Below are positions 4,362 through 39,796 of a stretch of DNA of 58,097 nucleotides, piece after piece (within the stretch, counting starts at the first letter, position 1; each line of letters begins with the position of its first letter). The notes beneath the pieces were generated by a model. It saw only the letters and a program-made list of their open reading frames with translations, did not search any database and had not been told where the DNA came from. Made by a program: the position numbers and the translations under genes. This stretch comes from an uncultured Clostridium sp. (lineage in GTDB: Bacteria; Bacillota; Clostridia; TANB77; CAG-508): the NCBI GenBank assembly GCA_964456505.1, contig CAYWAH010000003.1, forward strand, positions 1 to 58,097, given 5' to 3'.

Positions 4362-4437
4362 AGTAATTAATTACAAATTGCTAATAAATTTTTTTATTAA
4401 TTATTTTTAGATAATCCTAAAAAATATTCAAAAAGGC

Positions 4438-4465
4438 TTGATTTATTTTACTTATGTGATATAAT
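4438..4465 (+). promoter_or_regulatory. sigmaA promoter of tig
   Basis: TTGATT (4438-4443), 16 bp, extended -10 TGATATAAT. Confidence 0.6.
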
Positions 4466-4505
4466 ATAAAGGCTTTTTAGCATATATATGAGGAGTGAAA
4501 GAAAA

Positions 4506-5792: not shown

Positions 5793-5798
5793 TTTTTG

Positions 5799-5829
5799 AA
5801 AAAAGTTTGGTTTTTACCAAACTTTTTTT
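5799..5829 (+). terminator. Intrinsic terminator
   Basis: AAAAAAGTTTGG-TTTTTA-CCAAACTTTTTTT. Confidence 0.75.
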
Positions 5830-5938
5830 GACTAATATATTTAATATGTTCTAAATGTGAAATTTAATTGAAAAGGTTGATAAAATTTTATAAAAACTAT
5901 ATAATAAGAAAAGTTAAAAAAGAAAGGACGTTATAAAC

Positions 5939-6553
5939 ATGAAAGATTTAAATGATAGTTTAGTACCTTATGTAATTGAACAAACATCAAGAGGAGAAAG
6001 ATCATATGATATTTTCTCAAGATTATTAAAAGATAGAATTATATTTTTAAGTGAGGATGTAAATGCTACAACAGCAAGTTTGACAATTGCTCAATTGTTA
6101 TTCCTTGAATCAGAAGATCCAGAAAAGGAAATTTCTTTTTACATAAATTCACCTGGAGGATCTGTTACAGATGGACTTGGTATAATTGATACTATGAATT
6201 ATATTAAATGCCCTGTTACAACAATCTGCGTTGGCATGGCTGCTAGTATGGGTGCATTACTTTTGACTTCTGGAACAAAGGGTAAGAGATTTGCTTTACC
6301 TAATTCTGAGATTTTGATTCATCAACCATTGATTGGTGGACAAGGTGGCGGAATCTCTGGTCAAACAACAGAAATTAAAATTCAAGCTGATCAAATGGTT
6401 AAAACAAGAGATAGAATCAACAAGATAATTAGTTCTACTACTGGAAAACCAATTGACCAAGTTGAAAGAGACACAGAAAGAGATCATTATATGACTGCTC
6501 AAGAGGCTCTTGAATATGGATTGATTGATGGAATTATGGATAAAAGAAAATAG
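5939..6553 (+). CDS. clpP: ATP-dependent Clp protease proteolytic subunit
   Basis: '[18 protein letters not shown]', 'YINSPGGSV', 'GMAASMG', 'IHQPL'. Confidence 0.98.
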
Positions 6554-6568
6554 TTTTAGGAGAGTTTG

Positions 6569-7882
6569 ATGGCAAAAAAAATTGATGAAATTGTTAAATG
6601 TTCTTTTTGTGGCAAGTCACAAAAGGATGTAAAAAAAATAATTGAAGGACCTAGAGGTGTATACATTTGTGATGAATGTATTCAAGCATGTGAAAGCATA
6701 TTGGCTACAGATGAATTAGAAAATTATGAGCCTAAATATACTTTGAATAATGAAATTAATTTACCTACTCCAGAAAAAATTAAGCAGGAGCTAGATGAGT
6801 ATGTAATTGGACAAGATGATGCAAAGAAAACTCTTTCTGTTGCAGTATATAACCATTACAAAAGAATTAACAACGAGGTTGAATTTGATAATGATGATGT
6901 TGAAATTCAAAAGAGTAATGTTTTACTTCTTGGACCAACTGGCTCAGGAAAAACATATTTAGCACAAACACTTGCTAAAATACTTGAGGTTCCTTTTGCA
7001 ATTGCTGATGCTACCACATTAACTGAAGCAGGATATGTTGGAGAGGATGTAGAAAACATTCTTTTAAAACTTATTCAAGCTGCAGATTATGATATAGAAA
7101 AGGCTGAAAGAGGAATAATTTATATTGATGAAATCGATAAGATTTCAAGAAAATCTGAAAATCCATCAATAACAAGAGATGTAAGTGGAGAGGGAGTTCA
7201 ACAAGCATTATTGAAAATTGTTGAAGGAACAGTTGCGTCTGTTCCACCACAGGGAGGTAGAAAACATCCTCGCCAAGAGCTAATTCAAATAGACACATCA
7301 AATATTTTGTTTATTTGTGGTGGTGCTTTTGAAGGAATCGAAAAAATAATTGAAGAGAGAATTGGCAAAAAAGTAATTGGCTTTGGTGCTGAAACACAAG
7401 ATGCTAAAACAATGAGCAAAGACAAAATAATGGAACATTTACAATCAGAAGATTTGCTTAAGTTTGGAATTATTCCTGAATTTGTTGGAAGACTTCCAAT
7501 CGTTACAACACTTCATCAATTAGATAGAAAAGCACTTATTGACATTATGACAAAACCAAGAAATGCCTTGACAAAACAATACAAAAAATTGCTTGCGATT
7601 GATGGCGTTGAACTTGAATTTGAAAATGATGCTTTGGAAGCAATTGTCGACAAAGCCATTAAGAGAAAAACAGGTGCGAGAGGGTTGCGTTCAATAATGG
7701 AAGAAACAATGAGAGATATTATGTATGAAATACCTTCAAATCCAAAGATTGTAAAATGCATAATAACTAAAGAAACTGTTGAAAACAAAGCAAATCCTAA
7801 ATTGGTATTAGATGAATCGAGAGAATCTAATAAAGTAAAAAAATCAGATAATATGAAAAAAGACGAAGAAGAAAGCGCATAG
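6569..7882 (+). CDS. clpX: ATP-dependent Clp protease ATP-binding subunit ClpX
   Basis: Zn finger 'CSFCGK..ICDEC', Walker A 'GPTGSGKT', 'IDEIDKI', 'TGARGLR'. Confidence 0.98.
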
Positions 7883-7908
7883 AATTTAAATAATTAAAGG
7901 AGTTTTAA

Positions 7909-10746
7909 ATGGCACTGGATAAGATAATAGTAAAAGGCGCAAAAGAACATAATCTAAAAAATATTGATATAGAAATTCCTAAAGATAAGCTGGTTGTTAT
8001 AACCGGCTTATCTGGCTCTGGAAAGTCTTCTTTGGCTTTTGATACATTGTATGCTGAAGGTCAAAGAAGGTATGTTGAAAGTTTATCTTCATATGCAAGA
8101 CAATTCCTTGGAATAATGGACAAACCAAAGGTTGATTCTATTGATGGGCTTTCTCCTGCTATTTCAATTGACCAAAAAACCACTTCAAGAAACCCACGTT
8201 CAACTGTTGGGACTGTAACAGAAATTTATAATTACATTCGTTTGCTATATGCTAGAGTTGGTGTTGCATATTGTCCAAATTGTGGCACTAAAATTGAAAA
8301 GCAATCTGTCGATCAAATTGTTGATGATATTTTAAAACTTGATGAAGGCACAAGAATTCAAGTGTTAGCACCAATTGTTAAAAATAAAAAAGGCGAATAT
8401 AAAAAATTGCTTGATACCTATGAAAGAGAAGGATATGTTAGAGCAATAATTGATGGCGAAAACATTGAACTTAGCGATGATTACACAATTGACAGAAAGA
8501 AAAAACACACTATAGATATTGTTATTGATAGATTAGTTGTGAAAGAAGGAATCAGAGCAAGATTGACTGAATCTGTTGAAATTGCAATGAAAGATGCAGA
8601 TAATCTTGTAAAAATTGATTGCCCTGGAACTGAAAAAGACAAATTATATAGTGGTAATTATTCATGCCCTAATTGTGGTTTTTGTTTTCCGGAATTGTCT
8701 TCAAGGCTTTTCTCATTTAATAATCCTGAAGGCGCTTGCCCTGATTGTACTGGTATTGGTTACTTGATGAAAATGGATGAGGATTTACTAATACCTGATA
8801 AAACCAAAACTCTTTACGATGGTGTAAAATGCTTTGGTGCTAGTACAATGAAAAAAGGCGAAACAATGGCTAAGATGTATTTCGAGTCAATTGGAAAACA
8901 TTATGGTGTAGATATTACAAAGCCAATTAAAGATTTGCCAAGATGGTTTATGGATAAAATAATGTATGGTACAGGCGACGAAATTATTGATTTCAAATAT
9001 GAGAGCCCATTTGGTATTAGAAAAAATAGTATTCCATTTGAAGGTGTTATTCCAACACTTGAAAGAAGACATAGAGAAACAAAATCTCAAGGAATGATTC
9101 AATTTTATGAATATTATATGAGCGAAAAGGAATGCCCAACATGCCATGGAGCTAGATTAAGACCAGAAGCACTATCTGTAAAAGTCGGCGAAAAAAATAT
9201 TAAAGAACTTACTGATATGCCAATAATTGCCATTAAAGATTATTTATCAAACTTAAAATTATCAGAGAAAAATGCAATGATTGCAGAGCAAATTTTGAAA
9301 GAAATTGATTCAAGATTGCAATTCTTAATTGATGTTGGACTTGATTATTTAACTCTTTCACGTAGTGCCTCAACACTTTCTGGTGGAGAGTCACAAAGAA
9401 TAAGACTTGCAACACAAATAGGTTCAGGTTTAACAGGTGTAATGTATATACTTGATGAGCCTAGTATCGGTTTGCATCAAAGAGATAATAATAAACTAAT
9501 TGCAACATTGAAGAAATTGAGAGATTTAGGAAATACTGTAATTGTCGTTGAACATGATACAGATACAATGTTTGCAGCTGACCAAGTAATTGATATTGGC
9601 CCAGGTGCTGGTGTACATGGCGGATATGTAATGGCACAAGGAACAGCTGAAGAAATATCAAAAGTAAAAGATTCTATTACAGGCCAATATTTGTCTGGAA
9701 GAAAGCAAATTGAAGTTCCAAAGAAGAGAAGAAAAAATACAGGAAAATACCTTGAAATTGTAAAAGCCACAGAACACAATTTGAAAAATGTAACAGTAAA
9801 AATTCCACTAGGTCAATTTGTATGCGTTACAGGTGTATCTGGTTCTGGAAAAAGTACATTAGTAAATGATGTTTTATATAATAACATTTACAAAATTTTC
9901 AATAAAACAAATCAAAAAGTTGGAAAATGCAAAGAAATTAAAGGCATTGAAAATATTGATAAGGTAATAAATATTGATCAATCTCCAATTGGTAGAAGTC
10001 CAAGGTCAAACCCTGCAACATATACAGGCGTGTTTGATCTTATTAGAGATGTTTTTGCTAATACAAATGAAGCAAAAATGAGAGGTTATTCAAAAGGTAG
10101 ATTTAGCTTTAATGTACCTGGCGGTAGATGTGAATCTTGCCAAGGCGATGGAATAATCAAAATCGAAATGAATTTTTTATCAGATGTGTATGTTCCTTGC
10201 GATGTATGTCATGGAAGCAGATATAATAGAGAAACTTTGGAAGTTAAATACAAGGGAAAATCTATTGCAGATGTACTTGATATGACAGTTGAGGAGGCTC
10301 TTACATTTTTTGAAAACATACCAAGTATAAAAAGAAAAATTCAAACCTTAAATGATGTAGGATTAGGCTATATTAAGTTAGGACAACCATCTACAACTTT
10401 ATCAGGTGGAGAGGCTCAAAGAGTAAAATTGGCAACAGAACTTTCACGTGCTTCAACAGGAAAAACTTTGTACATTCTTGATGAACCTACTACGGGCTTA
10501 CATTTGGATGATGTAAATAGACTTGTTGAAATTTTACAAAGATTGGTTGACAAAGGCAACACAGTACTTGTAATTGAGCATAATCTTGATTTAATAAAAA
10601 CAGCAGATTACATTATTGATTTAGGGCCAGAAGGAGGAGAACGTGGTGGCGAAATTATTGCCGTTGGTACACCAGAAAAAGTTGCACAAAATGAAAATAG
10701 TTATACAGGCGAATTTTTAAAACCATATTTGGAGAAAAATATATGA
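7909..10746 (+). CDS. uvrA: Excinuclease ABC subunit A
   Basis: Two ABC cassettes ('[10 protein letters not shown]', '[12 protein letters not shown]', '[10 protein letters not shown]', '[12 protein letters not shown]') and Zn fingers. Confidence 0.98.
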
Positions 10747-25387: not shown

Positions 25388-25807
25388 ATGGAAAACGAAG
25401 ACGAAGAAAAAGAATACATGATTGAAGATGCTGAAGCCAATTCCGATAATAAAGAATTTATGTTGCAAGCAATAAAAGACAAATCTCCTTGGGTTATAAG
25501 ATATGCAAGTGATAGATTACATGATGATAAAGATTTGATGATGACAGCAGTTAAGTGTGATGGACAAGAACTCTATTATGCAAGTAAAAGATTAAGAAAT
25601 GATAAAGAACTTGTAATGGAGGCAATTAAAAATAAGCCATTAATCGTTAAATATGCAAGCAAAAAACTTAGAGGAGATAAAGATATAGCCAAAACTGTTT
25701 TATTACAAAATAAGGATAAATTTAAAATTTATTTAACAGATGAAATTTTAAATGATCCAGAAATAAAAGAAATAATTGAAGGGGATAAGAAAGATGAAGA
25801 AAATTAG
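25388..25807 (+). CDS. DUF4116-repeat protein
   Basis: Repeats 'YASDRLHDDKDLMMTAVK', 'YASKRLRNDKELVMEAIK', 'YASKKLRGDKDIAKTVL'. Confidence 0.85.
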   Translation: MENEDEEKEYMIEDAEANSDNKEFMLQAIKDKSPWVIRYASDRLHDDKDLMMTAVKCDGQELYYASKRLRNDKELVMEAIKNKPLIVKYASKKLRGDKDIAKTVLLQNKDKFKIYLTDEILNDPEIKEIIEGDKKDEEN

Positions 25808-27842
25808 TTTGGTATTTGTAATAATAGCAACAATATTATTACTTCCTGTTGGAAATATTTTTGCAAGTGAAGAAAATGGTAAAACTAATAATGTGCAAAC
25901 TAATGAAATAATTACTAATTCTGAAAGCACAAAAGAAAACTATGATAAAAAGGATAACACTAATTCAAATGAAAATAATTTAATTAACAATATTGAAATA
26001 AAAGACAATGAAAAAAGTTCAAATACTATTACCTCTAACAAAGCTAAAAGAAATATCAGTATTAAAACAAATACATATACAGAAAATAATGTTAAAGAAG
26101 AAAACAAAAATAATAATTCAATTAAAAGCGGTGAAAATACAAATACTGTTGTTAACAATGTACCAAATAATTCTGGTAAAAAGCAGAATAATCAAACAAA
26201 AAGAAATGTACAAAGAAATGTAACTATACCAAATTCATTAAATTCTACAAATAGCACAAATAGTACAAATATGACTAATGGTATTAGTACAAAAACAACT
26301 ACTACTAATAAAAACAATACCACTACTGCAAAAAATACTACCACAACGAATACAACAAAAAGCACAAAAACAGAAGCGGTAGACAATACGCCAAATTCAA
26401 TTGGTTATATTGGTCACATCCAAAATATTGGTTGGCAATCACAAAAAAAGGATGGAGAAGTTGCTGGTACTTCCGGACGTGGATTAAGAATGGAGGCCAT
26501 TAAAATAACTCCAATTTCCAAAAGTGCTCAGTATAAAAAAGACAATATAAAAATATACTATCAAGCACATGTTCAAAATATAGGCTGGCAAAAATATGTT
26601 ACAGAAAATCAAATAGCAGGAACTACAGGCAGAGGATTAAGAATAGAAGCAATTAGAATAAAATTGTCTGATAACAATGATTATTCTATAAAATACAGAG
26701 TTCATGTACAAAATATTGGCTGGATGCCATGGAAATATGATGATGAAATTGCAGGAACAACAGGTCAAAGTTTAAGAATTGAAGCAATACAAATTCAAAT
26801 TGTAAAAAAAGTTCAAAAACAACCACATATTTATTATAAAGCACATGTACAAAACGTTGGATGGCAATACACTAGAACAGATGGAGGAACTGCTGGCACA
26901 ACAGGTAGATCACTTAGAGTTGAAGCATTAAATATTAATATCGAAAATATTGGAAATATAGGTATTAACTATCAGACTCATGTACAAAATATTGGTTGGA
27001 TGAAATGGGTTAGAGGCGGACAAAATTCTGGAACAACTGGTAGAGGACTAAGAGTAGAGGCAATTAGAATAAAACTAGATGATAATAACAAATATTCTGT
27101 ACAATACAGAGTCCATGTACAAAATGTTGGATGGATGCCTTGGAAAATTGATGGAGAGATGGCTGGCACAACAGGTCGTTCTTTAAGGATTGAAGCTATA
27201 CAAATTAGAATAATTTCAAAACAAAAAGCAAGACTAAATGGTGTTGATGTAAGTGAACATAATTCTAAACGTGGTAATAGTTTGAATTGGGATTCAATTA
27301 AAAACAGTACTGACTTTGCAATTCTAAGATTAGGCTGGGTTGGAAATGATGATACAGATTATACATATGTAGATTCAAAATTTAATGAATATTATAATGA
27401 ATGTAAAAAGAGAAATATTCCTATTGGTGTATATGTATTTAATTATTGCAGAGATGCAAATAAATCTATAAGAAATGCAAATTGGGTTGCATCGCAATTA
27501 AAAAATAAGTCAATAAATTATGGTGTTTACTTTGATATCGAAAATACCGTTTCAAATAATAAACAAATATATGATGGTGTATCAAATGAAACATTGACAG
27601 CTGTTGTTAAAAATTTCTGTGATACTTTAAAGAAACAAAATTACAATACTGGATTTTATACAAATAAAAAATTTGCGATAGAAAGATTAAATATGAATCA
27701 ATTAAGCAACCACGAATTTTGGATTGCACAATATAATGATACAGTTACATATACTGGAAAATATAAGATGTGGCAATATACTAGTCAAGGCACAATCCCT
27801 GGATGTGTAGGTAATTTGGATTTGAATTATAGATATAAATAA
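25794..27842 (+). CDS. Secreted cell-wall hydrolase: signal peptide, N/T-rich linker, six ChW repeats, GH25 lysozyme domain
   Basis: Signal 'MKKISLVFVIIATILLLPVGNIFA'; six 'H(V/I)QN(I/V)GW...GTTG..LR.EA' repeats; GH25 'GVDVSEHN', 'YFDIE', 'WIAQY', 'WQYTSQG..PG..GNLDLN'. Confidence 0.9.
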   Translation: MKKISLVFVIIATILLLPVGNIFASEENGKTNNVQTNEIITNSESTKENYDKKDNTNSNENNLINNIEIKDNEKSSNTITSNKAKRNISIKTNTYTENNVKEENKNNNSIKSGENTNTVVNNVPNNSGKKQNNQTKRNVQRNVTIPNSLNSTNSTNSTNMTNGISTKTTTTNKNNTTTAKNTTTTNTTKSTKTEAVDNTPNSIGYIGHIQNIGWQSQKKDGEVAGTSGRGLRMEAIKITPISKSAQYKKDNIKIYYQAHVQNIGWQKYVTENQIAGTTGRGLRIEAIRIKLSDNNDYSIKYRVHVQNIGWMPWKYDDEIAGTTGQSLRIEAIQIQIVKKVQKQPHIYYKAHVQNVGWQYTRTDGGTAGTTGRSLRVEALNINIENIGNIGINYQTHVQNIGWMKWVRGGQNSGTTGRGLRVEAIRIKLDDNNKYSVQYRVHVQNVGWMPWKIDGEMAGTTGRSLRIEAIQIRIISKQKARLNGVDVSEHNSKRGNSLNWDSIKNSTDFAILRLGWVGNDDTDYTYVDSKFNEYYNECKKRNIPIGVYVFNYCRDANKSIRNANWVASQLKNKSINYGVYFDIENTVSNNKQIYDGVSNETLTAVVKNFCDTLKKQNYNTGFYTNKKFAIERLNMNQLSNHEFWIAQYNDTVTYTGKYKMWQYTSQGTIPGCVGNLDLNYRYK

Positions 27843-30494: not shown

Positions 30495-30526
30495 AAAAAA
30501 GTTGGAAACTATTTTCCAACTTTTTT
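30495..30526. terminator. Bidirectional terminator
   Basis: AAAAAAGTTGGAAA-CTAT-TTTCCAACTTTTTT. Confidence 0.7.
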
Positions 30527-31398
30527 ATTTCTCATTCTTATGTTGCTTCAAAAGGCCAATCATAAGCCCAGTGTTTTCAAATATAAATGTTTGAATATAT
30601 GGACCACCTTGATTGTTGTAGACTGTATCCATTTCTGTTGTTGGAGAGCATGGATTACTTTTAATAAACTCTGTATAATCTTCATATTTTCTACCAGTGT
30701 AATCTGCTGGTTCAGCTCTCTTTTTTAACTTTTTCTTTTTGGTTATTTTTCTTGAAACTTTTCTTCTTAAGTCAATATTTGTAATTCCCCAATCTTTAAA
30801 AAGACCCATTTCAATGTATGTATAAATTGTTTTAGCACATTGTGTAATTTCCCTATGATTTTGTAAAATCGTGTAAATTGACTGTCCCTGTTTAATTAAA
30901 GGGCATATGATGTGTGCTAATTCATAAAGCTCAGTTGTGTTCAAATTTACACCAATTCTCGAATCTTTTAATGTGTATTCATATTTTTTCTGTGCAACCT
31001 TTGCATAATAAAAATATTTGGCTTTTTTACATGTTTTAATGCTTGGACAATTATTACATGCACCAACAAAACGATCTCTTCTAAAACATGGAATTTCTTC
31101 AAAGCTTTGACATTTACTAATACAAATTTTACATTCATTAAAATGTTTACACATCCATGGAGAGTCATCAATTTGTGAATATCTACGTTGCCTGTATTTT
31201 CTAATTTCTTTTCCAATTGCTGATTGACTTTTCTGTATTTCATTTGCTGTTTCATATTTTCTTTTTCCTTGGATAATATTGGTTTCAATATGCATTCTAT
31301 CTTCAAGTGAAAGATGTTTTCCATCATTTATACTCATAAAACCTTCTTTCCCAAGAAACACCTGTAATATAATTATACCACTTTCTTTTAATCTTACA
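30525..31398 (-). mobile_element. Truncated IS30-family element; transposase 31337-30525, C-terminal DDE region lost
   Basis: 'KHLSLEDRMHIE..G...A..I.KSQSAIGKEIRK' HTH, Cys-rich insert, 'LRRKV', 'EMDTV' (first catalytic D), then an abrupt end. Candidate left end TGTAAGATTAA at 31398 on the minus strand. Confidence 0.85.
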
Positions 31399-31560
31399 AT
31401 AAGCATATATGTAAGATTAAAATTTAATTGTTTTAAATCAAATAGAATTTACTTTTTCATTTGACTTTATCAAAAATTAACTACAATTTAACATTAAAAT
31501 ACTTTACTTTAGGGCAAAAACATGGTAAAATATAGGTGCTTGATAAAAAGGAGTGATTTT

Positions 31561-32322
31561 ATGGAAACAATTTTAAAAAAACCATCACTGTATAATTTAT
31601 TGTATAAAGATGTAACAGAAGATATTAATTTATACAAAGTATTATTAAAAAACTATAAAGAGATAGTTGAATATGGTGCAGGGACAGGTAGAATTACTAT
31701 TCCTATAGCTCAAGAAGAAAAAAAAGTCATTGCAATAGATAATGAATCTAATATGTTAGATGATTTAAAGTTTAAAGTAAAAGAAATGGGATTAGAAAAA
31801 AATATTATTCCAATAAAAGCTGATATGATAACTTATGTATGTGATAAAAAAGAAAAGTGTGTTATTATGCCACTCACAGTCTTTAATTATATATTGGATG
31901 ATAAAGAACAAGAAGAATGCTTGAAAAATATAGGTAAATACTTAGAGAGAGATGGCACTCTTATAATAGAATTATTAACTAAAAAAACCTTTTTGGACTT
32001 AACAGAAAACTCTGAAAGTAATTTAGAATATATAAAAAAAATAAAAACAAACGATGGGTATTATGAATACTGGAGAACAACAACATTTGATAAAAATACA
32101 AATCTTATTGAACAGAGAAGAGTTTTTAAACATTTTAACAAAGAAAATAAAAATGATAGTCAAGAAGAATTTATATGGAAAAACAAGTTTATAACATATA
32201 ATACTATTAAACAAGAACTTGAAAGAAATAACTTTGTAATTGAAACAGCTTATGGAAATTGCAAATTAGATCCATATAATGAAGATAGTGAAGATTTATT
32301 TATTAAGGCTAAAAAGGTCTAA
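31561..32322 (+). CDS. Class I SAM-dependent methyltransferase; first gene of the RiPP-like cluster
   Basis: Motif I 'IVEYGAGTGRITI', 'AIDNESNML', 'YLERDGTLIIEL'; RBS AAGGAG. Confidence 0.9.
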   Translation: METILKKPSLYNLLYKDVTEDINLYKVLLKNYKEIVEYGAGTGRITIPIAQEEKKVIAIDNESNMLDDLKFKVKEMGLEKNIIPIKADMITYVCDKKEKCVIMPLTVFNYILDDKEQEECLKNIGKYLERDGTLIIELLTKKTFLDLTENSESNLEYIKKIKTNDGYYEYWRTTTFDKNTNLIEQRRVFKHFNKENKNDSQEEFIWKNKFITYNTIKQELERNNFVIETAYGNCKLDPYNEDSEDLFIKAKKV

Positions 32323-32369
32323 TAAATAAATTTCATTATATAAAATTTTAAAATAGGAGGAAAAATATT

Positions 32370-32468
32370 ATGAAATCAATTAATGAAAAAGTTGTATCAG
32401 TAGAAAAAATTTCTTCTGTAAGTGCATCTTGCATGTATCATAGTGTTTCTTGCATGTACCATGCATAG
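32370..32468 (+). CDS. Putative RiPP precursor peptide, 32 aa: MKSINEKVVSVEKISSVSASCMYHSVSCMYHA
   Basis: Manual translation. Strong RBS AGGAGG 9 nt upstream; duplicated core SCMYH (TCTTGCATGTATCAT / TCTTGCATGTACCAT); immediately upstream of an rSAM/SPASM gene. Confidence 0.85.
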   Translation: MKSINEKVVSVEKISSVSASCMYHSVSCMYHA

Positions 32469-32475
32469 GTGAGAC

Positions 32476-32507
32476 AAAAGATGGGCAAGATAGTTTGTCC
32501 ATCTTTT
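32476..32507 (+). terminator. Stem-loop after the precursor gene (leaky terminator or mRNA stabiliser)
   Basis: AAAAGATGGGCAA-GATAGT-TTGTCCATCTTTT. Confidence 0.7.
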
Positions 32508-32537
32508 CATTATAATTTTAGAAAGAGGGAATTAGTT

Positions 32538-33884
32538 ATGAAATTAATAAATGAAATTCAATTTGTAAGAATAAATGATAATGAGATAGTAATGTTGAAT
32601 CTTATAAATGCTGCAGCAGATATTCTTGATAATGATACATATGAGAAATTGACTAATGATATAGATTCATTAGATGAGAGTATTATAAAAAAATTAAAAG
32701 AGAGAAAATATGTTTTTAATAGTGAAAATGAATACAATGAATATTTAAGTAAATTAAACACAGCAATTGACATTGCTCAAAAAAATAGTCCTCCTTGCTT
32801 TTTAGTCGTTCCAACATATAATTGTAATCTTCGATGTACTTATTGTTATGAGAGAACATATAGAATAGAGAATATAAAAGAAAACAATATGATACAAATA
32901 ATAGATAGACAATTTGAGGTAATAGATGATGTAGTTAATAAATACAGAAAAACAAATATTAAGGATTTTGATTCAAATTGTATCAGGATTACAATCATGG
33001 GAGGAGAACCTCTATTAAGGGTTAATAAAAAAATTATTGAATATATATTTAAAAAGGTTAAAGAAAGAAAATATACAATTGATATTGTAACTAATGGCGT
33101 AGATTTAGACTATTTTATTGACATATTAACTGATGATTGTGTAGATCATATTCAAATTACATTAGATGGATCAAAAAATATACATGATAAGAGAAGAATA
33201 TTTGCTGATGGAAGAGGTAGTTTTACTAAAATAATAAACAATATTGGATTAGCATTAAAAAATAATATTAAAATTTACTTGAGAGTAAATGTAGATAATG
33301 ATAATTTAAATGATTTACCAGAATTAGCAAAAATACTAGTACAAAGATTTAATAATGATGAAAATTTAAACCCATATATATATCTTTTGCAAGATGGAGG
33401 ATGTTCTGGAGATGCAAATGTTGTCAAAGAAGAAGTAGGAATTGATAAAGTATATAAATTAGAGCATGAATATCCACAGATGAAAATTTTTAGAAAAAAA
33501 TTTCATCCAGAAATGTATATTAATTCTATATTACAAAATACTGAATTTCAACCAGTACTAAGACATTGTGGAGCTGCAATTAATCAATATATTCTAGATT
33601 ATAAGGGCAATATATATAGATGCTGGCATGGAATAGGAAATGATGGTTACAGAACAGGAAGATATATTCCTACAATAGAAGAAGATAAAGATAAAAATGA
33701 AAAATGGGATAAGAGATCAGTATTAAATCTAAAAAAATGTAAAAATTGTAAATATAGGTATATATGTGGAACAGGATGTCCTGCAGCAACCCATAAAGGA
33801 GAAAAAGAATTTGACATTGAAAAAGAAAGCTGTGTTGATTATGAAGGATTGATTGATACTATAATCAAAGAAAAAATAAAATGA
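32538..33884 (+). CDS. Radical SAM/SPASM peptide maturase with probable N-terminal RRE-like domain
   Basis: 'PTYNCNLRCTYCYE' (CxxxCxxC), 'MGGEPLL', 'IQITLDG'; SPASM 'HCGA..YRCW', 'CKNCKYRYICGTGCP..SC'; ~85-aa N-terminal extension. Start at ATG 32538 after GAGGG. Confidence 0.93.
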   Translation: MKLINEIQFVRINDNEIVMLNLINAAADILDNDTYEKLTNDIDSLDESIIKKLKERKYVFNSENEYNEYLSKLNTAIDIAQKNSPPCFLVVPTYNCNLRCTYCYERTYRIENIKENNMIQIIDRQFEVIDDVVNKYRKTNIKDFDSNCIRITIMGGEPLLRVNKKIIEYIFKKVKERKYTIDIVTNGVDLDYFIDILTDDCVDHIQITLDGSKNIHDKRRIFADGRGSFTKIINNIGLALKNNIKIYLRVNVDNDNLNDLPELAKILVQRFNNDENLNPYIYLLQDGGCSGDANVVKEEVGIDKVYKLEHEYPQMKIFRKKFHPEMYINSILQNTEFQPVLRHCGAAINQYILDYKGNIYRCWHGIGNDGYRTGRYIPTIEEDKDKNEKWDKRSVLNLKKCKNCKYRYICGTGCPAATHKGEKEFDIEKESCVDYEGLIDTIIKEKIK

Positions 33885-33895
33885 GGTGATTGCAA

Positions 33896-35962
33896 TTGAA
33901 TGATAAAGAAATAATGACTTTAGGAGTATTTGCTCATGCAAATGCTGGCAAAACTACAATAACTGAAAATTTATTATATGACACACATGTAATTAATGAA
34001 ATAGGCAGAGTCGATTCTGGAAATACAGTAACTGATTCTATGAAAGTTGAAAAAGAGAGAGGAATTACAGTTAGATCTTCTTTAGTTTCTTTTGATGCTG
34101 AAGGAAAAAAAGTACAATTGATTGATACTCCTGGACATGTTGACTTTTCGGCAGAAGTTGAAAGAGCAATTAATGTGTTAGACGGTGCTGTACTTGCAAT
34201 TTCAGGTGTAGAGGGTGTTGAAGCACAGACATATACTATATGGAATGCGTTAAAAGAAAAAAAGGTTCCAACTATATTTTTTATAAATAAAATGGATAGA
34301 GTAGGTGCTGATTATGAAAGAACGATTAACGAGATAAAAGAAAAATTGCAAGTACCAATAGTATCATTGCAAAAGATAGAAACAAATGATGATAAAATAA
34401 TAATTAAGGATTTAACCAATGAACAAATTGTTGAGCAATTAACGTCAATAGATGATGATAATGTTGATGACTTAATAGAAAAATATTTAAATGATCCTAA
34501 TAGTTTATCTACTGAAGAAATAAACCAAAGAATAGAAGAATTATCAATAAGTGGAAAAATCAATATTGCTATTGGAGGAAGTGCCCTTAAAAGTATAGGT
34601 ACAAATGAATTAGTACATTATATCTCTAAATATTTACCAAGTACTCAGAGAAAAATAGAAGATGAATTCTCTGCATATGTTTATACTGTGAGAGTTGAAG
34701 ACAATGGACAAAAAAACTTATATGTAAAGGTGTTAACTGGTGAAATTTCACCAAGAGACACAATTAAAATGGATGATGAAGATAATGAAGCTAAAATAAA
34801 AAATACATTTATTTCAGATGGAAAAGAAATCGTAAACACAGATTACTTAAAAAGTGGCGATATCGGAATTATAACAGGAATAGATGCAAAATGTGGGCAG
34901 TTACTTGGTAGTCAAAAAGAAAAAAATAAATATGTAAGTTTCGTAAAGCCTTTAATAAATATGGAAATAGATGCTAAAGAAAAAAATCAAGTTATTAAGT
35001 TGGTTGAAGCATTAAAAGTTTTAAATGATGAAGATCCATATTTAAATGTTAGATATTCTAAGAATACTAGAAAAATATACATGAGTTTAATGGGAGAGGT
35101 TCAAGCACAAGTAATAGAAGAAATGTTAAAAGACAGATTTAGCATTGATGCTACCATTTCAAAACCAGTTATAATTCATAAAGAAAAGCCGATAAAAAAA
35201 GGAGTTGGTGAAGCTTACTATACAAGAGTTTCAGGATTAAAACTTGAAATAGAACCTTTACCAGAAGGCAGTGGATTCCACTATAAATCTGATTTATCTA
35301 CAGATTATTTGCATAAGAAATATCAAAGGCAAACAGAAAGATTAGTTAATAAATATTCTAAACAGGGGCTATATGGATGGGAAGTAACAGATGCAGAAGT
35401 AAGGCTAGTAGATGGAAGATTTGACTCAATGGGGTCTGAACCAAAACATTTTAATATTGCAGTACCGCTCGCATTTATGAGAGCATTAAAAGATTCTGGG
35501 GTGGAACTTCTTGAACCAATAAGCTCATACTCAATTATAGTTCCAAAAGAAAATTTGAATAATGTAATACAACTATTATCAAAAAAAGAGTCTAGCTTTG
35601 AAATAGATGAAACAATGGAACATAATGTGAAAATAACTGGAGAAGCACCATTGGATTTGATGTCTAATTTTCCAGTAGAATTAAACAAATTAACTTCAGG
35701 AAGAGGAATATATAGTCAAAATGTAGAAAAATATATGCATTCACGTGAACAAGATAAAGAGTGTCCATATATTGGACCAGATCCTAGGAATGAAGTTCCT
35801 TTCGTAATAAGTGATATGGGAGCAAGTTTGGATTATCTTGATCCAGTTAGAAGCAAGAAAAAGAAAGTAAGTAGAGCAAAATTTAAAAGAGAAAGAAAAG
35901 AAAAGCAAATCAGAGAAGAAAAAAAAAGAACAAGATTTGAAGGGATAGATAGAGATGATTAA
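33896..35962 (+). CDS. TetM/TetO-like (EF-G paralog) translational GTPase, putative ribosome-protection protein
   Basis: 'LGVFAHANAGKTTITENLLY', 'ERGITV', 'IDTPGHVDF', 'NKMDR', 'LNDEDP', 'ELLEP'; domain IV layout of the Tet RPP clade. TTG 33896 is best spaced from GAGGTG (ORF track starts at 33890). Confidence 0.85.
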   Translation: MNDKEIMTLGVFAHANAGKTTITENLLYDTHVINEIGRVDSGNTVTDSMKVEKERGITVRSSLVSFDAEGKKVQLIDTPGHVDFSAEVERAINVLDGAVLAISGVEGVEAQTYTIWNALKEKKVPTIFFINKMDRVGADYERTINEIKEKLQVPIVSLQKIETNDDKIIIKDLTNEQIVEQLTSIDDDNVDDLIEKYLNDPNSLSTEEINQRIEELSISGKINIAIGGSALKSIGTNELVHYISKYLPSTQRKIEDEFSAYVYTVRVEDNGQKNLYVKVLTGEISPRDTIKMDDEDNEAKIKNTFISDGKEIVNTDYLKSGDIGIITGIDAKCGQLLGSQKEKNKYVSFVKPLINMEIDAKEKNQVIKLVEALKVLNDEDPYLNVRYSKNTRKIYMSLMGEVQAQVIEEMLKDRFSIDATISKPVIIHKEKPIKKGVGEAYYTRVSGLKLEIEPLPEGSGFHYKSDLSTDYLHKKYQRQTERLVNKYSKQGLYGWEVTDAEVRLVDGRFDSMGSEPKHFNIAVPLAFMRALKDSGVELLEPISSYSIIVPKENLNNVIQLLSKKESSFEIDETMEHNVKITGEAPLDLMSNFPVELNKLTSGRGIYSQNVEKYMHSREQDKECPYIGPDPRNEVPFVISDMGASLDYLDPVRSKKKKVSRAKFKRERKEKQIREEKKRTRFEGIDRDD

Positions 35963-36962
35963 TTTTGAAAACACTAAACCATTAAGTTATGAAGAATTAT
36001 TAGAAATTGAAAATAAAATTTATGACAAAGAGTATATTGATGAAAAAACTCAAAAAACAGATATAAATTTGAATGAAGTATTATCCAGGAAAACGGAAAT
36101 ATTTAAAGATAAAACATATAATTTGCCACAAAATATTTTTTATATTGACAATTATAAAGGAAAAGTAGTAGTTGGAAGAAAAATTAGGTCAGTTTTAAGC
36201 TTTGAAAATAAAATAAATGCGATACACTGCAGTATGATAACGAGCTCAATGCTTTTAGGATTCTTAAAAAAAGGATTTCAAAGAGAAAAAGATGTAGAGG
36301 TAGAATATTATCCTCTAAAAAAATCTGAAAAAATAACAGCATTTGATGAAATAAAAAATAATAAAAATTCTGATATTTATTTTCCATTTAAATATTTAGA
36401 CTATTACACAAATGAAGAAGAAAAATCTCCAGATACTGGCTGGGATTTAAATCCTGCAAAAGTTATATATCTAGGATATGGAGAAGAACATATTAGAAAA
36501 TATACAATAAATTTTATAAAGCCATATATGAAAGATGGAACCATTATATTCGATCCAGCATGTTCTACAGGTCAATTTTTACATACTATAAAGAAATATT
36601 ATCCAAGTTGTAAAACGATAGGTCAAGATTTAAGTAAAGAAATGGTTGATTATGCTAAAGACTATGTCGATGAAATTTATTGTGGTGATTCAATAAATAC
36701 AAAAATAAAAGATGAAAGTGTAGATATTGAATTTTTTCGATTTTTGAATTCAGAAGTTGTTACAACTGAATATGCATATTTACTTTTTGAACATTTATAC
36801 AAAAAAGTAAAAAAAAATGGAATAATTGTAATATTTGGACATACCCCTGTTTTAATGAAGAAAGAATTTTTTATAAAACTTGGATTAAAAGTAGTACAAT
36901 CAATTGCATATGATAAAGATTATGATTGTATTTTTCAATATTATGTGTTAAGGAGAGTATAA
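35955..36962 (+). CDS. SAM-dependent transferase, methyltransferase fold; resembles 3-amino-3-carboxypropyl transferases of the isonocardicin synthase (Nat) type
   Basis: SAM motif 'FDPACSTGQFL', 'TIGQDLSKEMV', 'CGDSI', 'RFLNSEVVT', 'GHTPVL', 'FQYYVL'. The Nat resemblance is from recalled motifs, not a search. Confidence 0.7.
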   Translation: MINFENTKPLSYEELLEIENKIYDKEYIDEKTQKTDINLNEVLSRKTEIFKDKTYNLPQNIFYIDNYKGKVVVGRKIRSVLSFENKINAIHCSMITSSMLLGFLKKGFQREKDVEVEYYPLKKSEKITAFDEIKNNKNSDIYFPFKYLDYYTNEEEKSPDTGWDLNPAKVIYLGYGEEHIRKYTINFIKPYMKDGTIIFDPACSTGQFLHTIKKYYPSCKTIGQDLSKEMVDYAKDYVDEIYCGDSINTKIKDESVDIEFFRFLNSEVVTTEYAYLLFEHLYKKVKKNGIIVIFGHTPVLMKKEFFIKLGLKVVQSIAYDKDYDCIFQYYVLRRV

Positions 36963-36964
36963 TA

Positions 36965-38065
36965 ATGGAAGAAACATATAACCCTAATAAACTCATAATT
37001 GATAGAAGTGCAATTGAATTCAACATAGATAATATTAGAAAGCATCTTGGAAAAAATGTTGAATTGATGCCTATAGTTAAGGCTAATGCATATGGAGTAG
37101 GGATTAATAATATTTTGCCAATTTTAGTAAAAAAGAATATAAAAAGCATAGGTGTTGCAAATGTAAATGAAGGAATAATTGCAAGAAAAGAGTTCAAAGG
37201 ACAAATATTAGTTTTATTGCAACCACTAGTACAACAAATTCCGGAAATAATAAAAAATAAGCTAACAATAAATGCATGTGATTATAACTTTTTATATGTG
37301 TTAAATAAGAAATCTGAAACTAACAATATAGTTTCAGAGGTTCATATAGAAATTGATACAGGAATGGGACGAACAGGTATTAAAATTGAGGATATAGATG
37401 AGTTTTTAAACAAAATTAAGAATTTACAAAATATAAAAGTAGTTGGCATATCCTCTCATTTATCATCAAGTGGAAATAATGAAGAATATTCGTATTTTCA
37501 AATTGAAAGATTCAAGCAAGCAATAAGTATCTTTAAATTGAAAAAAATTCAATTAAAATATATTCATATTTATGCAAGTGGAGGAATATTAAAATATCCA
37601 ATTAAATTTTCAAATATGGCGAGAACTGGAATTATGATTTATGGATATTATCCAGGAAAAAATAAAAATATAAAGTTATTCCCTGCTCTAAAACTTATGA
37701 CAAAAATAAGCTATATCCATACTGTAAAACATGGCGAGTATATAGGATATAATTGCATTTATAAAGCAAAAGAAAACAGGAGAGTTGCAGTCATACCTAT
37801 TGGATTTGCGGATGCACTTATGGGATTAGAAAGCAATATTGGTTCTGTTATGGTAAAGAATAAAAAAGCAAAAATAATTGCAATTTGCATGGATACTATG
37901 ATAATAGATATTACAAATATAGATAATGCTAAAATAGATGATGATGTTGTTTTATGGGATAATGATGATATAACATTAGAACAATGGGGAGAGTGGACTA
38001 ATACAAGTAATTATGAAGTGTTATCAATATTATCTAATAGAATAGAAAGAAAAATGATAAATTAG
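36965..38065 (+). CDS. Alanine-racemase-family PLP enzyme (divergent; possible tailoring epimerase)
   Basis: 'VKANAYG' PLP lysine, 'HIEIDTGMGRTG', 'RTGIMIYG', 'GEYIGY' (catalytic Tyr position), 'ICMD', 'NYEVL..RIER'. Confidence 0.9.
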   Translation: MEETYNPNKLIIDRSAIEFNIDNIRKHLGKNVELMPIVKANAYGVGINNILPILVKKNIKSIGVANVNEGIIARKEFKGQILVLLQPLVQQIPEIIKNKLTINACDYNFLYVLNKKSETNNIVSEVHIEIDTGMGRTGIKIEDIDEFLNKIKNLQNIKVVGISSHLSSSGNNEEYSYFQIERFKQAISIFKLKKIQLKYIHIYASGGILKYPIKFSNMARTGIMIYGYYPGKNKNIKLFPALKLMTKISYIHTVKHGEYIGYNCIYKAKENRRVAVIPIGFADALMGLESNIGSVMVKNKKAKIIAICMDTMIIDITNIDNAKIDDDVVLWDNDDITLEQWGEWTNTSNYEVLSILSNRIERKMIN

Positions 38066-38134
38066 AGTAAATGAAAAAACTGTCCTTCTTTTATTTAAGT
38101 GTTTTTTTATAAAGCTAATGAAAATGGAGTAAAA

Positions 38135-39796
38135 ATGTTAAGGGTTGAAAATATTTCAAAATCTTATAATGGAAAAGATATCTTAAATAATATAAGTTTC
38201 TCTTTGGATGAAGGAGAAAAAGCAGGAATTATTGGATTAAATGGAATTGGAAAAACAACATTATTAAGAATAATTGCAGACGAGGAGAAACCTGATTCAG
38301 GAAAAATAATTAAAGATAAAAATAGTCTTATAGGATACTTTAAACAAGAATTTAAAATATCTGAAGAAGATAGGAATATTGTGAGTTTTATAAAAAAATT
38401 TATAGGAATAGATGTTATTGAAATACATATGAACGAAGCTGAAAAAGCAATGGAAACGGATGAAAGTAAGATTCAAGAGTTTTGTGATTTACAGGAAGAA
38501 TATATGAGACTAGATGGCTATAATATTGATTATAAACTAGATCAAATATTATCTGGACTTGGATTAGATAATACAATTAAAGAAAAGAAAATATCTGAAC
38601 TTTCAGGAGGACAAAAAGAAAAAGTAATGCTTGCAGCTGTTCTTTTAAAAGGAACAGATTTACTTTTGTTGGATGAGCCAACAAATAATTTAGATATAAA
38701 ATCAATAAATTGGTTGGAAAAATATCTAAAAAACAATAATTCACCAATGCTTATTGTATCACATGATAGAAGATTTTTAGATGATGTAATTACCAAAGTT
38801 ATGGAAATAGATTTTTATACTAGAAATATGAAAGAATATCCTGGAAATTATAGTGAGTACAAAAAATTTAAGGAAGATGAACAAAATGCTCAACTTAGAA
38901 AATACAATGAACAACAAGAGAAGATTGGAGAACTAAGAAAAAGCATTACTCAAAAGAAGGAATGGGCACAAAAAGGAAATAAGCAAGGAGTATCTGATAA
39001 CGATAAGTATACGAGAGGATATATTAGGGATAGATCACAAGGGTTAGCAAGTAATGCAAAAAAAATTGAATCTCAAATTAGCCAAATGAATAAAATAGAA
39101 AGACCTAAAATAAAGAACAAATTACATATTGATATAAATGGAGATAAAACAAAAGGAAATAAAAATATTGACACAAAAGACCTTGTATCTGGATATGAGG
39201 ACGGATTTAAAAATGAGCCAGTTACTACACATATAAAATATGGTGATAGATTAGTTATCATAGGTGATAATGGTTCAGGAAAATCAACTTTTTTAAGAAC
39301 TTTGATTGGAAAACAAAAACCAATTTCTGGTGAACAAAGCATAGGCAGTGGAGTAAAAATAGGTTATTTAGCACAAGATACAAAAGAAAATACAAATGAA
39401 ACGATAGAAGATTACTTCAAGAAATCAATTAACTATGCTAATTTAGAAGATAAATCTTTAATTTATACGGTACTTAAACAATTCAATTTTGATTACGAAG
39501 AAAGAACAAAAAAATATTCTATGTTAAGTCCAGGAGAAAGGGCTAGATTAAAATTAGCAATTTTCTCGATGCAAGATATAAATACTCTTGTTTGCGATGA
39601 ACCAACGAATCATTTGGATATAGAAGCATTAGAAGCTATTGAAGAAGTACTTAAGGATTTCGACGGAACAGTTATAGCAATAAGTCATGATAGAGAATTT
39701 ATAAAAAATATAGACCCAACTAAAGTTTTAAAATTTTCAGATGGAAAAGTAGAAGTAATTTATCACAAAGATCAAGATGATAAAACAATACTATAA
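38135..39796 (+). CDS. ABC-F family ribosome-associated ATPase (ribosome-protection-like)
   Basis: Tandem NBDs ('GLNGIGKTT', 'LSGGQK', 'LLDEPTNNLD'; 'GDNGSGKST', 'LSPGER', 'CDEPTNHLD'), no TM segments, long inter-domain linker. Confidence 0.92.
   Translation: MLRVENISKSYNGKDILNNISFSLDEGEKAGIIGLNGIGKTTLLRIIADEEKPDSGKIIKDKNSLIGYFKQEFKISEEDRNIVSFIKKFIGIDVIEIHMNEAEKAMETDESKIQEFCDLQEEYMRLDGYNIDYKLDQILSGLGLDNTIKEKKISELSGGQKEKVMLAAVLLKGTDLLLLDEPTNNLDIKSINWLEKYLKNNNSPMLIVSHDRRFLDDVITKVMEIDFYTRNMKEYPGNYSEYKKFKEDEQNAQLRKYNEQQEKIGELRKSITQKKEWAQKGNKQGVSDNDKYTRGYIRDRSQGLASNAKKIESQISQMNKIERPKIKNKLHIDINGDKTKGNKNIDTKDLVSGYEDGFKNEPVTTHIKYGDRLVIIGDNGSGKSTFLRTLIGKQKPISGEQSIGSGVKIGYLAQDTKENTNETIEDYFKKSINYANLEDKSLIYTVLKQFNFDYEERTKKYSMLSPGERARLKLAIFSMQDINTLVCDEPTNHLDIEALEAIEEVLKDFDGTVIAISHDREFIKNIDPTKVLKFSDGKVEVIYHKDQDDKTIL

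Follow-up and report, generated by a model that had tools for sequence, protein, structure and literature searches.

A tandem C-x-Y-H peptide gene linked to a radical-SAM maturase, a Nat-like transferase and a TetM-like GTPase: the precursor of an apparently undescribed peptide family

We analysed a stretch of 58,097 nucleotides from an uncultured Clostridium sp. (GenBank assembly GCA_964456505.1, contig CAYWAH010000003.1, positions 1 to 58,097 of the forward strand), which is referred to as the window, with the focus on a short gene at 32370..32468. Its 32-residue product is, judging from its relatives, the precursor of an apparently undescribed family of ribosomally synthesised and post-translationally modified peptides (RiPPs) that are predicted to be modified by a radical S-adenosylmethionine enzyme (rSAM) and defined by a C-terminal Cys-x-Tyr-His-Z unit. 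The gene is the second of six that run in one direction and are tightly packed. The others encode a methyltransferase-like protein (MT1), a radical-SAM/SPASM maturase, a TetM/TetO-like GTPase, a 3-amino-3-carboxypropyl (ACP) transferase resembling the isonocardicin synthase Nat, and a pyridoxal-phosphate (PLP) enzyme of the alanine racemase family (Table 1). The window was compared with related loci labelled L001-L115. The flanks of the segment 31472-38121 are unrelated between the window and the contigs L001-L010, which amounts to at least two genomic contexts. Hence, the six genes form a discrete module that has moved. The earlier sequence-only reading of this DNA had recognised the rSAM and the precursor, but missed the ACP transferase, the TetM-like GTPase and the mobility of the module.

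Translation of 32370..32468 (+) gives MKSINEKVVSVEKISSVSASCMYHSVSCMYHA followed by the stop codon, which parses as MKSINEKVVSVEKISSVSA-SCMYH-SV-SCMYH-A. The properties that the sequence-only reading had ascribed to this gene are all borne out at the coordinates it gave: the AGGAGG ribosome-binding site, the leader without Cys or aromatic residues ahead of the SCMYH cassettes, and a difference between the two cassettes that is solely in the third base of the Tyr codon (TAT/TAC). The 15-nt cassette pattern occurs twice in the window, against 0.01 occurrences expected from shuffles. Homologous precursor genes are also preceded by GAGGAGG-type sites, and 16 of 18 distant loci have a hairpin, unrelated in sequence, at the equivalent position 3' of the precursor stop. 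The gene had further been called unannotated. This holds insofar as no name or family is attached to it anywhere, and the Pfam and NCBIfam scans of the 32-residue peptide assigned no family; gene callers do call the open reading frame (ORF) in public assemblies, however. Specifically, the identical peptide is called as a gene on at least 23 metagenome contigs with the six-gene order fixed.

Table 1. Features of the six-gene module and of its borders in the window.
Feature	Coordinates	Strand	Remarks
Precursor peptide gene	32370..32468	+	32 codons, ATG start; leader residues 1-19, then two S-C-M-Y-H cassettes
Core cassette 1 (S20 C21 M22 Y23 H24)	32427..32441	+	DNA is TCTTGCATGTATCAT
Core cassette 2 (S27 C28 M29 Y30 H31)	32448..32462	+	DNA is TCTTGCATGTACCAT; followed by A32 and the stop
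Shine-Dalgarno AGGAGG	32355..32360	+	9 nt before precursor ATG; read from sequence
Intercistronic hairpin	32476..32507	+	14-bp stem, 4-nt loop, A/T-rich tail; -18.9 kcal/mol, z = -4.1 vs shuffles; terminator- or stabiliser-like
Radical-SAM/SPASM peptide maturase	32538..33884	+	448 aa; N-terminal RRE-like domain; Pfam Radical_SAM; SPASM model TIGR04085
TetM/TetO-like translational GTPase	33890..35962	+	690 aa; starts 5 nt after rSAM stop; own domain-IV loop FDSMGS, basic C-terminal extension
Isonocardicin-synthase (Nat)-like SAM-dependent ACP transferase	35955..36962	+	335 aa; start overlaps GTPase stop by 8 nt
Alanine-racemase-family PLP enzyme	36965..38065	+	366 aa; starts 2 nt after ACP-transferase stop
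MT1, class I SAM methyltransferase, amine N-methyltransferase-like	31561..32322	+	alternative start 31522; 253 aa as called in L001
Six-gene 6.65-kb module (MT1, precursor, rSAM, GTPase, ACP transferase, racemase)	31472..38121	.	99.1-99.8% identical to L001-L010 (blastn), with alignments limited to these coordinates
Promoter-like site TTTACT, 17 nt, TG-n-TAAAAT	31503..31531	+	just inside left module border; consensus scan 9/12, extended -10; conserved in L001/L003/L006
IS30-like ORF	30525..31406	-	weak match, possibly truncated; 66 nt left of module border
Ribosomal-protection-type ABC-F gene	38099..39796	+	at right module border; 436 bits vs cutoff 380

Homologues of the precursor were collected from a scan of one genome per GTDB species and from 66 loci anchored on the second 'methyltransferase' gene, at 35955-36962, with six-frame inspection. 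At least 28 distinct small ORFs of the C-x-Y-H family adjoin orthologous rSAM/SPASM genes, and together they span about ten phylum-level lineages. The rSAM family occurs in Clostridia, RF39-type Bacilli (e.g. Ca. Pelethosoma, including metagenome-assembled genomes (MAGs) labelled Tenericutes), Erysipelotrichaceae, Muribaculaceae and Flavobacteriales, and further in a Melainabacteria-like Cyanobacteriota MAG, in Peregrinibacteria and Absconditicoccaceae, which are two lineages of the candidate phyla radiation (CPR), in Bdellovibrionota and in a proteobacterial MAG. Among the matches listed (120 database clusters), the orthologues of the maturase all share at least 47% identity; a phage search with the same protein returned distant matches only, with identities of no more than 31%. 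A protein-database search with the precursor alignment (first row of 49 residues) returned only 16 matches, because most homologous precursor ORFs encode 26 residues and are too short for gene calling. As these are mostly absent from protein databases, DNA-level six-frame scans were required.

The precursor alignment shows a family leader, MKS[IL]N.K[VI]V, which is followed by about ten variable residues and then by the core [S/G/A/T]-C-x-Y-H-Z at the C-terminus, where x is H, M, D, K, R, C, V, L or A, and Z is I, V, A, S, M, N or D. The C-x-Y-H unit is single in most lineages, double in three independent lineages, and triple in L057. The double cores are SCMYH-[SV/SA/NV]-SCMYH in the clade of the window, CHYH-S-CHYH-N in a Muribaculaceae MAG, and two copies of NGQGCKYHV in a proteobacterial MAG. 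The triple-core precursor of L057 (at about 3396, metagenome Ga0082212_10003317) reads MKSLNKKVVVSAETLAASNAS-CHYH-A-CHYH-S-CHYH-N. In L025 and L057 the cassettes are separated by single residues, which are the same as the C-terminal follower residue Z; this suggests that 'C-x-Y-H-Z' is the repeated processing unit. Tandem cassettes may give either one bicyclic peptide or separate units. The sequence-only reading had proposed a scan beside rSAM homologues for CMYH-like motifs in varying numbers, and one, two or three C-x-Y-H units are indeed found there. Its proposal that the gene encodes a RiPP precursor read by the adjacent rSAM, with the SCMYH cassette as the substrate unit, agrees well with these homologues beside orthologous rSAMs in about ten lineages.

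Conservation is concentrated in the cassettes. Between the window and L011, a cluster of 73% identity, the ten core codons carry no non-synonymous and two synonymous changes, and the other 22 codons (leader, linker and last residue) carry seven non-synonymous and two synonymous changes. The selection on the peptide claimed earlier is hence also visible between clusters, the cassette codons having only synonymous changes. Across phyla the Cys, Tyr and His codons vary (TGT/TGC, TAT/TAC and CAT/CAC) and the residues are kept. A chance ORF was therefore rejected, on account of the identical peptide on at least 23 contigs, the conserved core codons, the residues conserved across phyla, and the conserved position of the hairpin. 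Distant relatives of the rSAM (34-42% identity) are accompanied by precursors that retain the leader but have different cores, namely CVYCMK, CQYCMK, CGYNAG, CMYSLCK and CTYNAH. In this wider family no core residue other than Cys and Tyr is invariant; His gives way to Cys, Asn or Ser in distant members. Judged by these comparisons, 32370..32468 is a genuine precursor gene with a leader/core split, conserved and strictly linked to its enzymes. No description of the family, of the enzyme clade or of the gene combination was found in Pfam, NCBIfam release 20 or the literature searched, which held background on Nat-type enzymes only.

The position of the precursor gene bears on another explanation. 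A short ORF with a strong Shine-Dalgarno site and a terminator-like hairpin directly after it, upstream of a ribosomal-protection-type gene, could be a cis-acting leader peptide, in which ribosome stalling together with the terminator hairpin would control a resistance-type operon as in tet(M), erm and ABC-F leaders. We consider this very improbable. The gene that comes next encodes a peptide maturase with a recognition domain, not the GTPase, and the same leader family precedes rSAMs in clusters that are free of the GTPase. In L026 (Absconditicoccaceae, code 25) the homologous ORF is upstream of the rSAM and divergent from it, in L037 (Lachnospiraceae) it lies past the last cassette gene about 6 kb beyond the rSAM, and in L024/L054 and L033/L034 it occurs as tandem duplicates; besides, the cassette copy number ranges from 1 to 3. 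A cis-acting attenuator peptide was rejected on the divergent, distal and duplicated arrangements, which depart from a fixed co-oriented position. From the placements in L026 and L037 it follows that the precursor gene of this family need not be adjacent to the rSAM in cis.

As a precursor, the peptide would be read by the radical-SAM/SPASM maturase encoded directly downstream. The SPASM model TIGR04085 scores 53 bits with this enzyme against a cutoff of 27. The cysteines C96, C100 and C103 of the CxxxCxxC motif and the SPASM cysteines C344, C362, C401, C404, C410, C414 and C432 are invariant in 60 sequences. In the AlphaFold2 model (pLDDT 89.5), residues 7-82 fold as β-β-β-α-α-α (β3-α3) with a pLDDT of about 95, and are predicted to form a peptide-recognition domain of the RiPP recognition element (RRE) type. 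The top Foldseek matches are CteB, aligned over the full length, TigE, anSME and SuiB; with sequence and structure taken together, the best matches among solved structures are CteB, TigE, anSME, SuiB and ChlB. The best-scoring NCBIfam model is that of CefB (142.7 bits, cutoff 600), followed by TIGR04463, PapB (111.2, cutoff 340), Clo7bot and the SCIFF maturase (82.9, cutoff 425); CcpM scores 79.2 (cutoff 500). Hence, the thioether-forming families are nearest, but all score below their cutoffs, and the enzyme falls outside the sactipeptide and ranthipeptide maturases.

Of the chemical options listed in the sequence-only reading, a Cys-Tyr (i, i+2) link fits best. A thioether is favoured because enzymes of the CteB, PapB, SCIFF and CefB types form thioethers and because Cys and Tyr are the invariant pair; each cassette thus probably receives a Cys-Tyr cross-link of this kind. 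A Cys-His link is disfavoured, and was ruled out as the class-defining one, since distant relatives have Cys, Asn or Ser in place of His. The third option was a triceptide-type cyclophane, in which the Tyr ring is joined to Cβ of the residue after His (Y-H-Z); we considered an Arg-Tyr-like C-C bond along with it. In either case Cys would have another role, such as metal binding or a second modification. Y-H-Z does fit the aromatic-X-X pattern, and models of triceptide and ryptide maturases do detect the enzyme (HxsB 82.6 bits, cutoff 370; YhhB 79.9, cutoff 445; FxsB 59.5, cutoff 370; ryptide 58). These scores are far below cutoff, though, and weaker than those of the thioether-forming families. 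Moreover, Z is highly variable (I, V, A, S, M, N or D) and often Ala, it is the lone spacer between cassettes in L025 and L057, and the invariant partner is Cys rather than Z. The maturase therefore falls outside the triceptide families despite the Y-H-Z motif, and we regard the cyclophane as unlikely.

Beyond the presumed Cys-Tyr cross-link, a second modification is suggested by the gene at 35955-36962. Pfam recognises only a generic methyltransferase domain in its product. The structure of Nat (PDB 8zhu) matches it with E = 2.6e-38 and 135 bits, residues 56-334 of the query aligning with residues 47-325 of 326, and the match includes the N-terminal cap domain as well as the SAM-binding fold, i.e. 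the homology is full-length. In nocardicins, the acceptor of the ACP group that Nat takes from SAM is the phenol of hydroxyphenylglycine, and the only other characterised member of the Nat family transfers ACP to a tyrosyl phenol; both thus O-alkylate a 4-hydroxyphenyl group (PMC11869996; PMC10491745). By analogy, we infer that 35955-36962 transfers ACP rather than methyl. Among metagenome loci whose ACP transferase is at least 45% identical, the rSAM and/or the GTPase is directly upstream in 18 of 19 informative ones, L066 being the exception; there (4056-10436) the Nat-like gene, of 46% identity, lies within an unrelated cluster. A plasmid search with the ACP transferase gave matches of at most 33% identity. 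Nat-like ACP-transferase genes also recur with other peptide-modifying enzymes in L072, L069 and L115. In L072 (2622-7838) an rSAM, a small ORF ending in ...TCCQNQY, the Nat-like gene and a second rSAM follow one another in this order, and in L115 (5783-7996, plasmid pBFI_2 of B. cereus 03BB108) a YcaO::Nat-like fusion protein is annotated as 'YcaO-like' only.

The ACP-transferase gene is followed by that of the PLP enzyme. This protein scores 297 bits with TIGR00492, and its PDB matches are Alr, serine racemase and lysine racemase. A PLP racemase-family gene occupies the same position in 10 of the 14 related loci that extend past the ACP transferase. In the biosynthesis of nocardicin A, the PLP-dependent NocJ epimerises the new amino-acid centre as the next step after Nat. 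The first gene of the module, MT1, is present in only a subset of related loci. MT1 matches Pfam Methyltransf_25/31, the NCBIfam daptide methyltransferase (72.6 bits, below cutoff), and among PDB entries YunM (1.7e-10) and CcbJ (1.7e-6); weak matches of Erm/KsgA type are seen as well.

The GTPase is nearer to tetracycline-protection proteins than to elongation factors. In the PDB comparison it scores 352 bits with TetM and 241 bits with EF-G, and in NCBIfam 539.3 bits with tet_protect (NF012153), whose cutoff is 775, and 344 bits with the EF-G model. In the alignment of loop III of domain IV, FDSMGS of the GTPase stands opposite YYSPVS of TetM, where Y506-Y507-S508-P509 are the residues that contact the tetracycline site. 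Hence, the GTPase neither reaches the family cutoff nor has the loop III residues of TetM that characterise tetracycline ribosomal protection proteins. The FDSMGS loop is instead invariant across 16 cassette GTPases, in which the basic C-terminal tail is conserved as well. GTPases of related loci share 47-56% identity, which is comparable to the enzymes, and, wherever the sequence extends far enough, all genome-derived C-x-Y-H loci but L035 show the order rSAM, GTPase, ACP transferase. A further case is L045 (8001-10233, a Ca. Ventrenecus avicola MAG), where the last ca. 55 codons of the rSAM are followed by an intact GTPase with FDSMGS, and neither precursor nor ACP transferase is present; it looks like a decayed cluster that keeps an orphan protection gene. 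The GTPase most plausibly protects the producer ribosome, in view of its place in the ribosomal-protection clade, of a tip loop that is invariant and its own, and of its survival in the decayed L045, where it stands alone.

The GTPase and the ACP transferase are gained and lost jointly, both being missing in L035 and in the relatives with C-x-Y-C/N cores, and so it is possible that the ACP transferase too is part of resistance. In that case the rSAM alone would mature the peptide, and the transferase and the GTPase would be the resistance half, with the rRNA or a ribosomal protein near the GTPase site as the target that is aminocarboxypropylated or methylated. ACP modifications do occur on rRNA and tRNA (PMC10491745), and the weak Erm/KsgA-type matches of MT1 point in the same direction. 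On the other side, the known substrates of the Nat family are peptidyl or tyrosyl phenols and the homology covers the substrate-cap domain of Nat, Nat-like genes occur in other RiPP-type clusters without the GTPase (L072 and the YcaO fusion), and the decayed L045 retains the GTPase but not the ACP transferase. We give this explanation little credence, and retain the ACP transferase as a probable peptide-tailoring enzyme.

Larger versions of the cluster in RF39 Bacilli and Bacteroidota (L012, L016, L018-L020, L025, L028 and L050-L068) add a divergent LysR regulator, an S66 peptidase (LD-carboxypeptidase/MccF type), an M29 aminopeptidase, an Amidohydro_2 amidohydrolase, an ATP-grasp-like protein and a small MORN-repeat protein. 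None of these six accessory genes has a homologue anywhere in the window. The ATP-grasp-like protein, so called from reading its sequence alone, has no match in Pfam, NCBIfam or PDB. Relatives with non-His cores (C-x-Y-C and C-x-Y-N) are without GTPase and ACP transferase; they have a major facilitator superfamily (MFS) exporter instead, and sometimes a second rSAM. Such sister clusters are found in cultured Firmicutes (L030-L034 and L040-L042: Pseudolactococcus chungangensis, Clostridium pascui, Lacrimispora sinapis and Sedimentibacter hydroxybenzoicus), where an MFS exporter is present and the leader is common. The precursors found there have the cores C-x-Y-C-M-K or C-G-Y-N-A-G; L030 yielded none, and the second rSAM is seen in L031, L033 and L034. 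These organisms give access in culture to the Cys-x-Tyr chemistry that defines the class.

Neither the module in the window nor the minimal four-gene cassette of CPR bacteria and Bdellovibrionota holds an exporter or a protease, and the GTPase is as conserved as the enzymes. The modified peptide might hence be an intracellular effector or cofactor that acts with the GTPase on the producer ribosome as a translation regulator, with the GTPase as a possible ACP acceptor, cf. diphthamide on EF-2; the combination of rSAM, ACP chemistry, methyltransferase and translocase-like GTPase resembles the diphthamide pathway. This is quite improbable, considering that the GTPase occurs without any biosynthetic gene in L045, that MFS pumps export the products of related clusters, that an RRE is present in the rSAM and a leader in its substrate, and that the larger clusters carry M29 and S66 peptidases and a LysR regulator, which are typical of small-molecule pathways.

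The reading that we prefer is a cross-linked, aminocarboxypropylated C-x-Y-H RiPP that is directed at the ribosome, with the GTPase as self-protection; we put the probability of this proposal as a whole at about 60%. The leader MKS[IL]N.K[VI]V... would dock on the RRE-like N-terminal domain of the rSAM/SPASM enzyme, which would link the invariant Cys and Tyr once per cassette, most likely as a thioether between the Cys sulfur and a Tyr carbon (-2 Da each), and hence twice in the peptide of the window. The Nat-like transferase would then move the 3-amino-3-carboxypropyl group of SAM (+101 Da) to the cassette. The likeliest site is the phenol oxygen of Tyr, which would yield a homoserine ether as in nocardicin A. 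The Alr-type PLP enzyme may epimerise the new α-amino-acid centre, as NocJ does, and an amine may be N-methylated by MT1. Exopeptidases would trim the leader and the last residue Z; these are M29 and S66 in the larger clusters and unlinked ones in the organism of the window. The product would act on the ribosome, from which the TetM-like GTPase would dislodge it. The hairpin 3' of the precursor gene would raise the ratio of precursor to enzymes.

Several points weigh against this proposal. We infer translation, modification, product and target alike. The maturase reaches no curated family cutoff (at best 143 vs 600 bits), so that its chemistry cannot be transferred from a relative; a change of -2 Da would be common to thioether, S-aryl and C-C links. 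The ACP transferase could be a methyltransferase, or act on His, rRNA or the GTPase. The Alr-type gene is absent from the versions in CPR bacteria, Bdellovibrionota and L023, and could be a merely linked housekeeping gene. The C-K-Y-H x2 precursor of L035 is without ACP transferase and GTPase. The TetM loop residues YSP are unconserved in the cassette GTPases, and to our knowledge the ribosomal-protection proteins of TetM type act only on tetracyclines. Finally, no protease or exporter was found in the module of the window.

The system resembles three known ones in different parts, and by analogy can be described as a sacti-/ranthipeptide-like pathway joined to the late steps of nocardicin biosynthesis and to an OtrA-type self-resistance gene. 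With CteA/CteB (thermocellin/SCIFF), PapA/PapB (freyrasin) and CefA/CefB it shares a short precursor, a leader, a Cys-containing C-terminal core and an RRE-rSAM-SPASM maturase, and the CteB, PapB and CefB types are the best sequence and fold matches of the maturase. PapA and CefA also have repeated acceptor/donor units within one precursor. The differences are that the enzyme is far below the cutoffs of CefB, PapB and SCIFF maturases (143/600, 111/340 and 83/425), and that the C-x-Y-H core is only four to five residues long with an invariant Tyr two residues after Cys, unlike sacti- and ranthipeptides. We know of no sacti- or ranthipeptide cluster with an ACP transferase or a TetM-like GTPase, and none was found in the literature searched. 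Triceptides (XyeB/YhhB/FxsB/HxsB) and ryptides (Arg-x-Tyr) are alike in having a minimal i to i+2 aromatic ring and a motif that is repeatable within a precursor, but the maturase lies outside those families and its invariant partner is Cys.

As in the late steps of nocardicin A, where Nat is followed by NocJ, the Nat homologue is here immediately followed by a PLP racemase-family gene, and the transfer would likewise go to a peptide side chain of the 4-hydroxyphenyl kind (PMC11869996; PMC10491745). In contrast to nocardicin A, the substrate would be ribosomal and not made by a non-ribosomal peptide synthetase, the racemase has the Alr fold and is likened to NocJ by role only, and the ACP transfer is deduced. 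The GTPase shares with Tet(M), Tet(O) and Otr(A) the five-domain EF-G-like build, is nearer to TetM/TetO than to EF-G, and lies inside a biosynthetic cluster. Otr(A) is the producer self-resistance factor in the oxytetracycline cluster. The GTPase differs from these proteins in scoring below the NCBIfam cutoff, in having FDSMGS for YYSPVS and a longer conserved basic C-terminal tail, and in that its cognate compound would be a peptide and not a tetracycline. In the comparisons with named families, the maturase thus stays below the cutoffs, the GTPase stays below the tet_protect cutoff and lacks the TetM loop, and only the homology to Nat holds. These sequences suggest a new rSAM-RiPP class in which both the tailoring and the kind of linked protection gene are new, and whose chemistry and target are predicted.

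In a bolder version of the proposal, which we offer tentatively, the C-x-Y-H peptides would form a new class of RiPP antibiotics, very small and aimed at the ribosome. They would consist of cross-linked Cys-x-Tyr(O-homoseryl)-His units, with a distinct TetM-like GTPase clade as dedicated immunity. Their makers would be gut RF39 Bacilli, Clostridia, Bacteroidota, CPR bacteria and predatory Bdellovibrionota. The cassette is found at about 50% identity across reduced-genome gut commensals, CPR epibionts and predatory bacteria, which indicates horizontal spread and an ecological role in competition between microbes. If the preferred reading is right, the class would have one of the smallest conserved cores known among rSAM RiPPs, four residues in one to three copies per precursor, and would be the first ribosomal peptide pathway with a Nat-type ACP transferase, of which very few are characterised. 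Under the bolder version, the nocardicin-type aminocarboxypropyl ether would also be used in ribosomal peptide chemistry, and ribosomal-protection GTPases would have natural ligands other than tetracyclines. The TetM-like clade tied to a peptide natural product would give a testable answer to what protection proteins counter in anaerobes that never meet tetracycline producers. The 6.65-kb module would be a vehicle on which a reservoir of such protection genes travels. With a 32-residue peptide and two to four enzymes, the system is small enough for direct reconstitution.

Aside from the module, a few features of its surroundings were noted. The promoter-like site and the IS30-like ORF lie on either side of the left border (Table 1). 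The ABC-F gene at the right border was rejected as a module member because it is outside the segment shared with other contigs. Further upstream in the window, 25776-27842 (+) encodes a secreted-looking protein of 688 residues. As read from the translation, it combines an extended stretch rich in Asn and Thr with repeats of the form 'HVQNIGW...AGTTG...LR[IV]EAI' and with a lysozyme-like part at the C-terminus.

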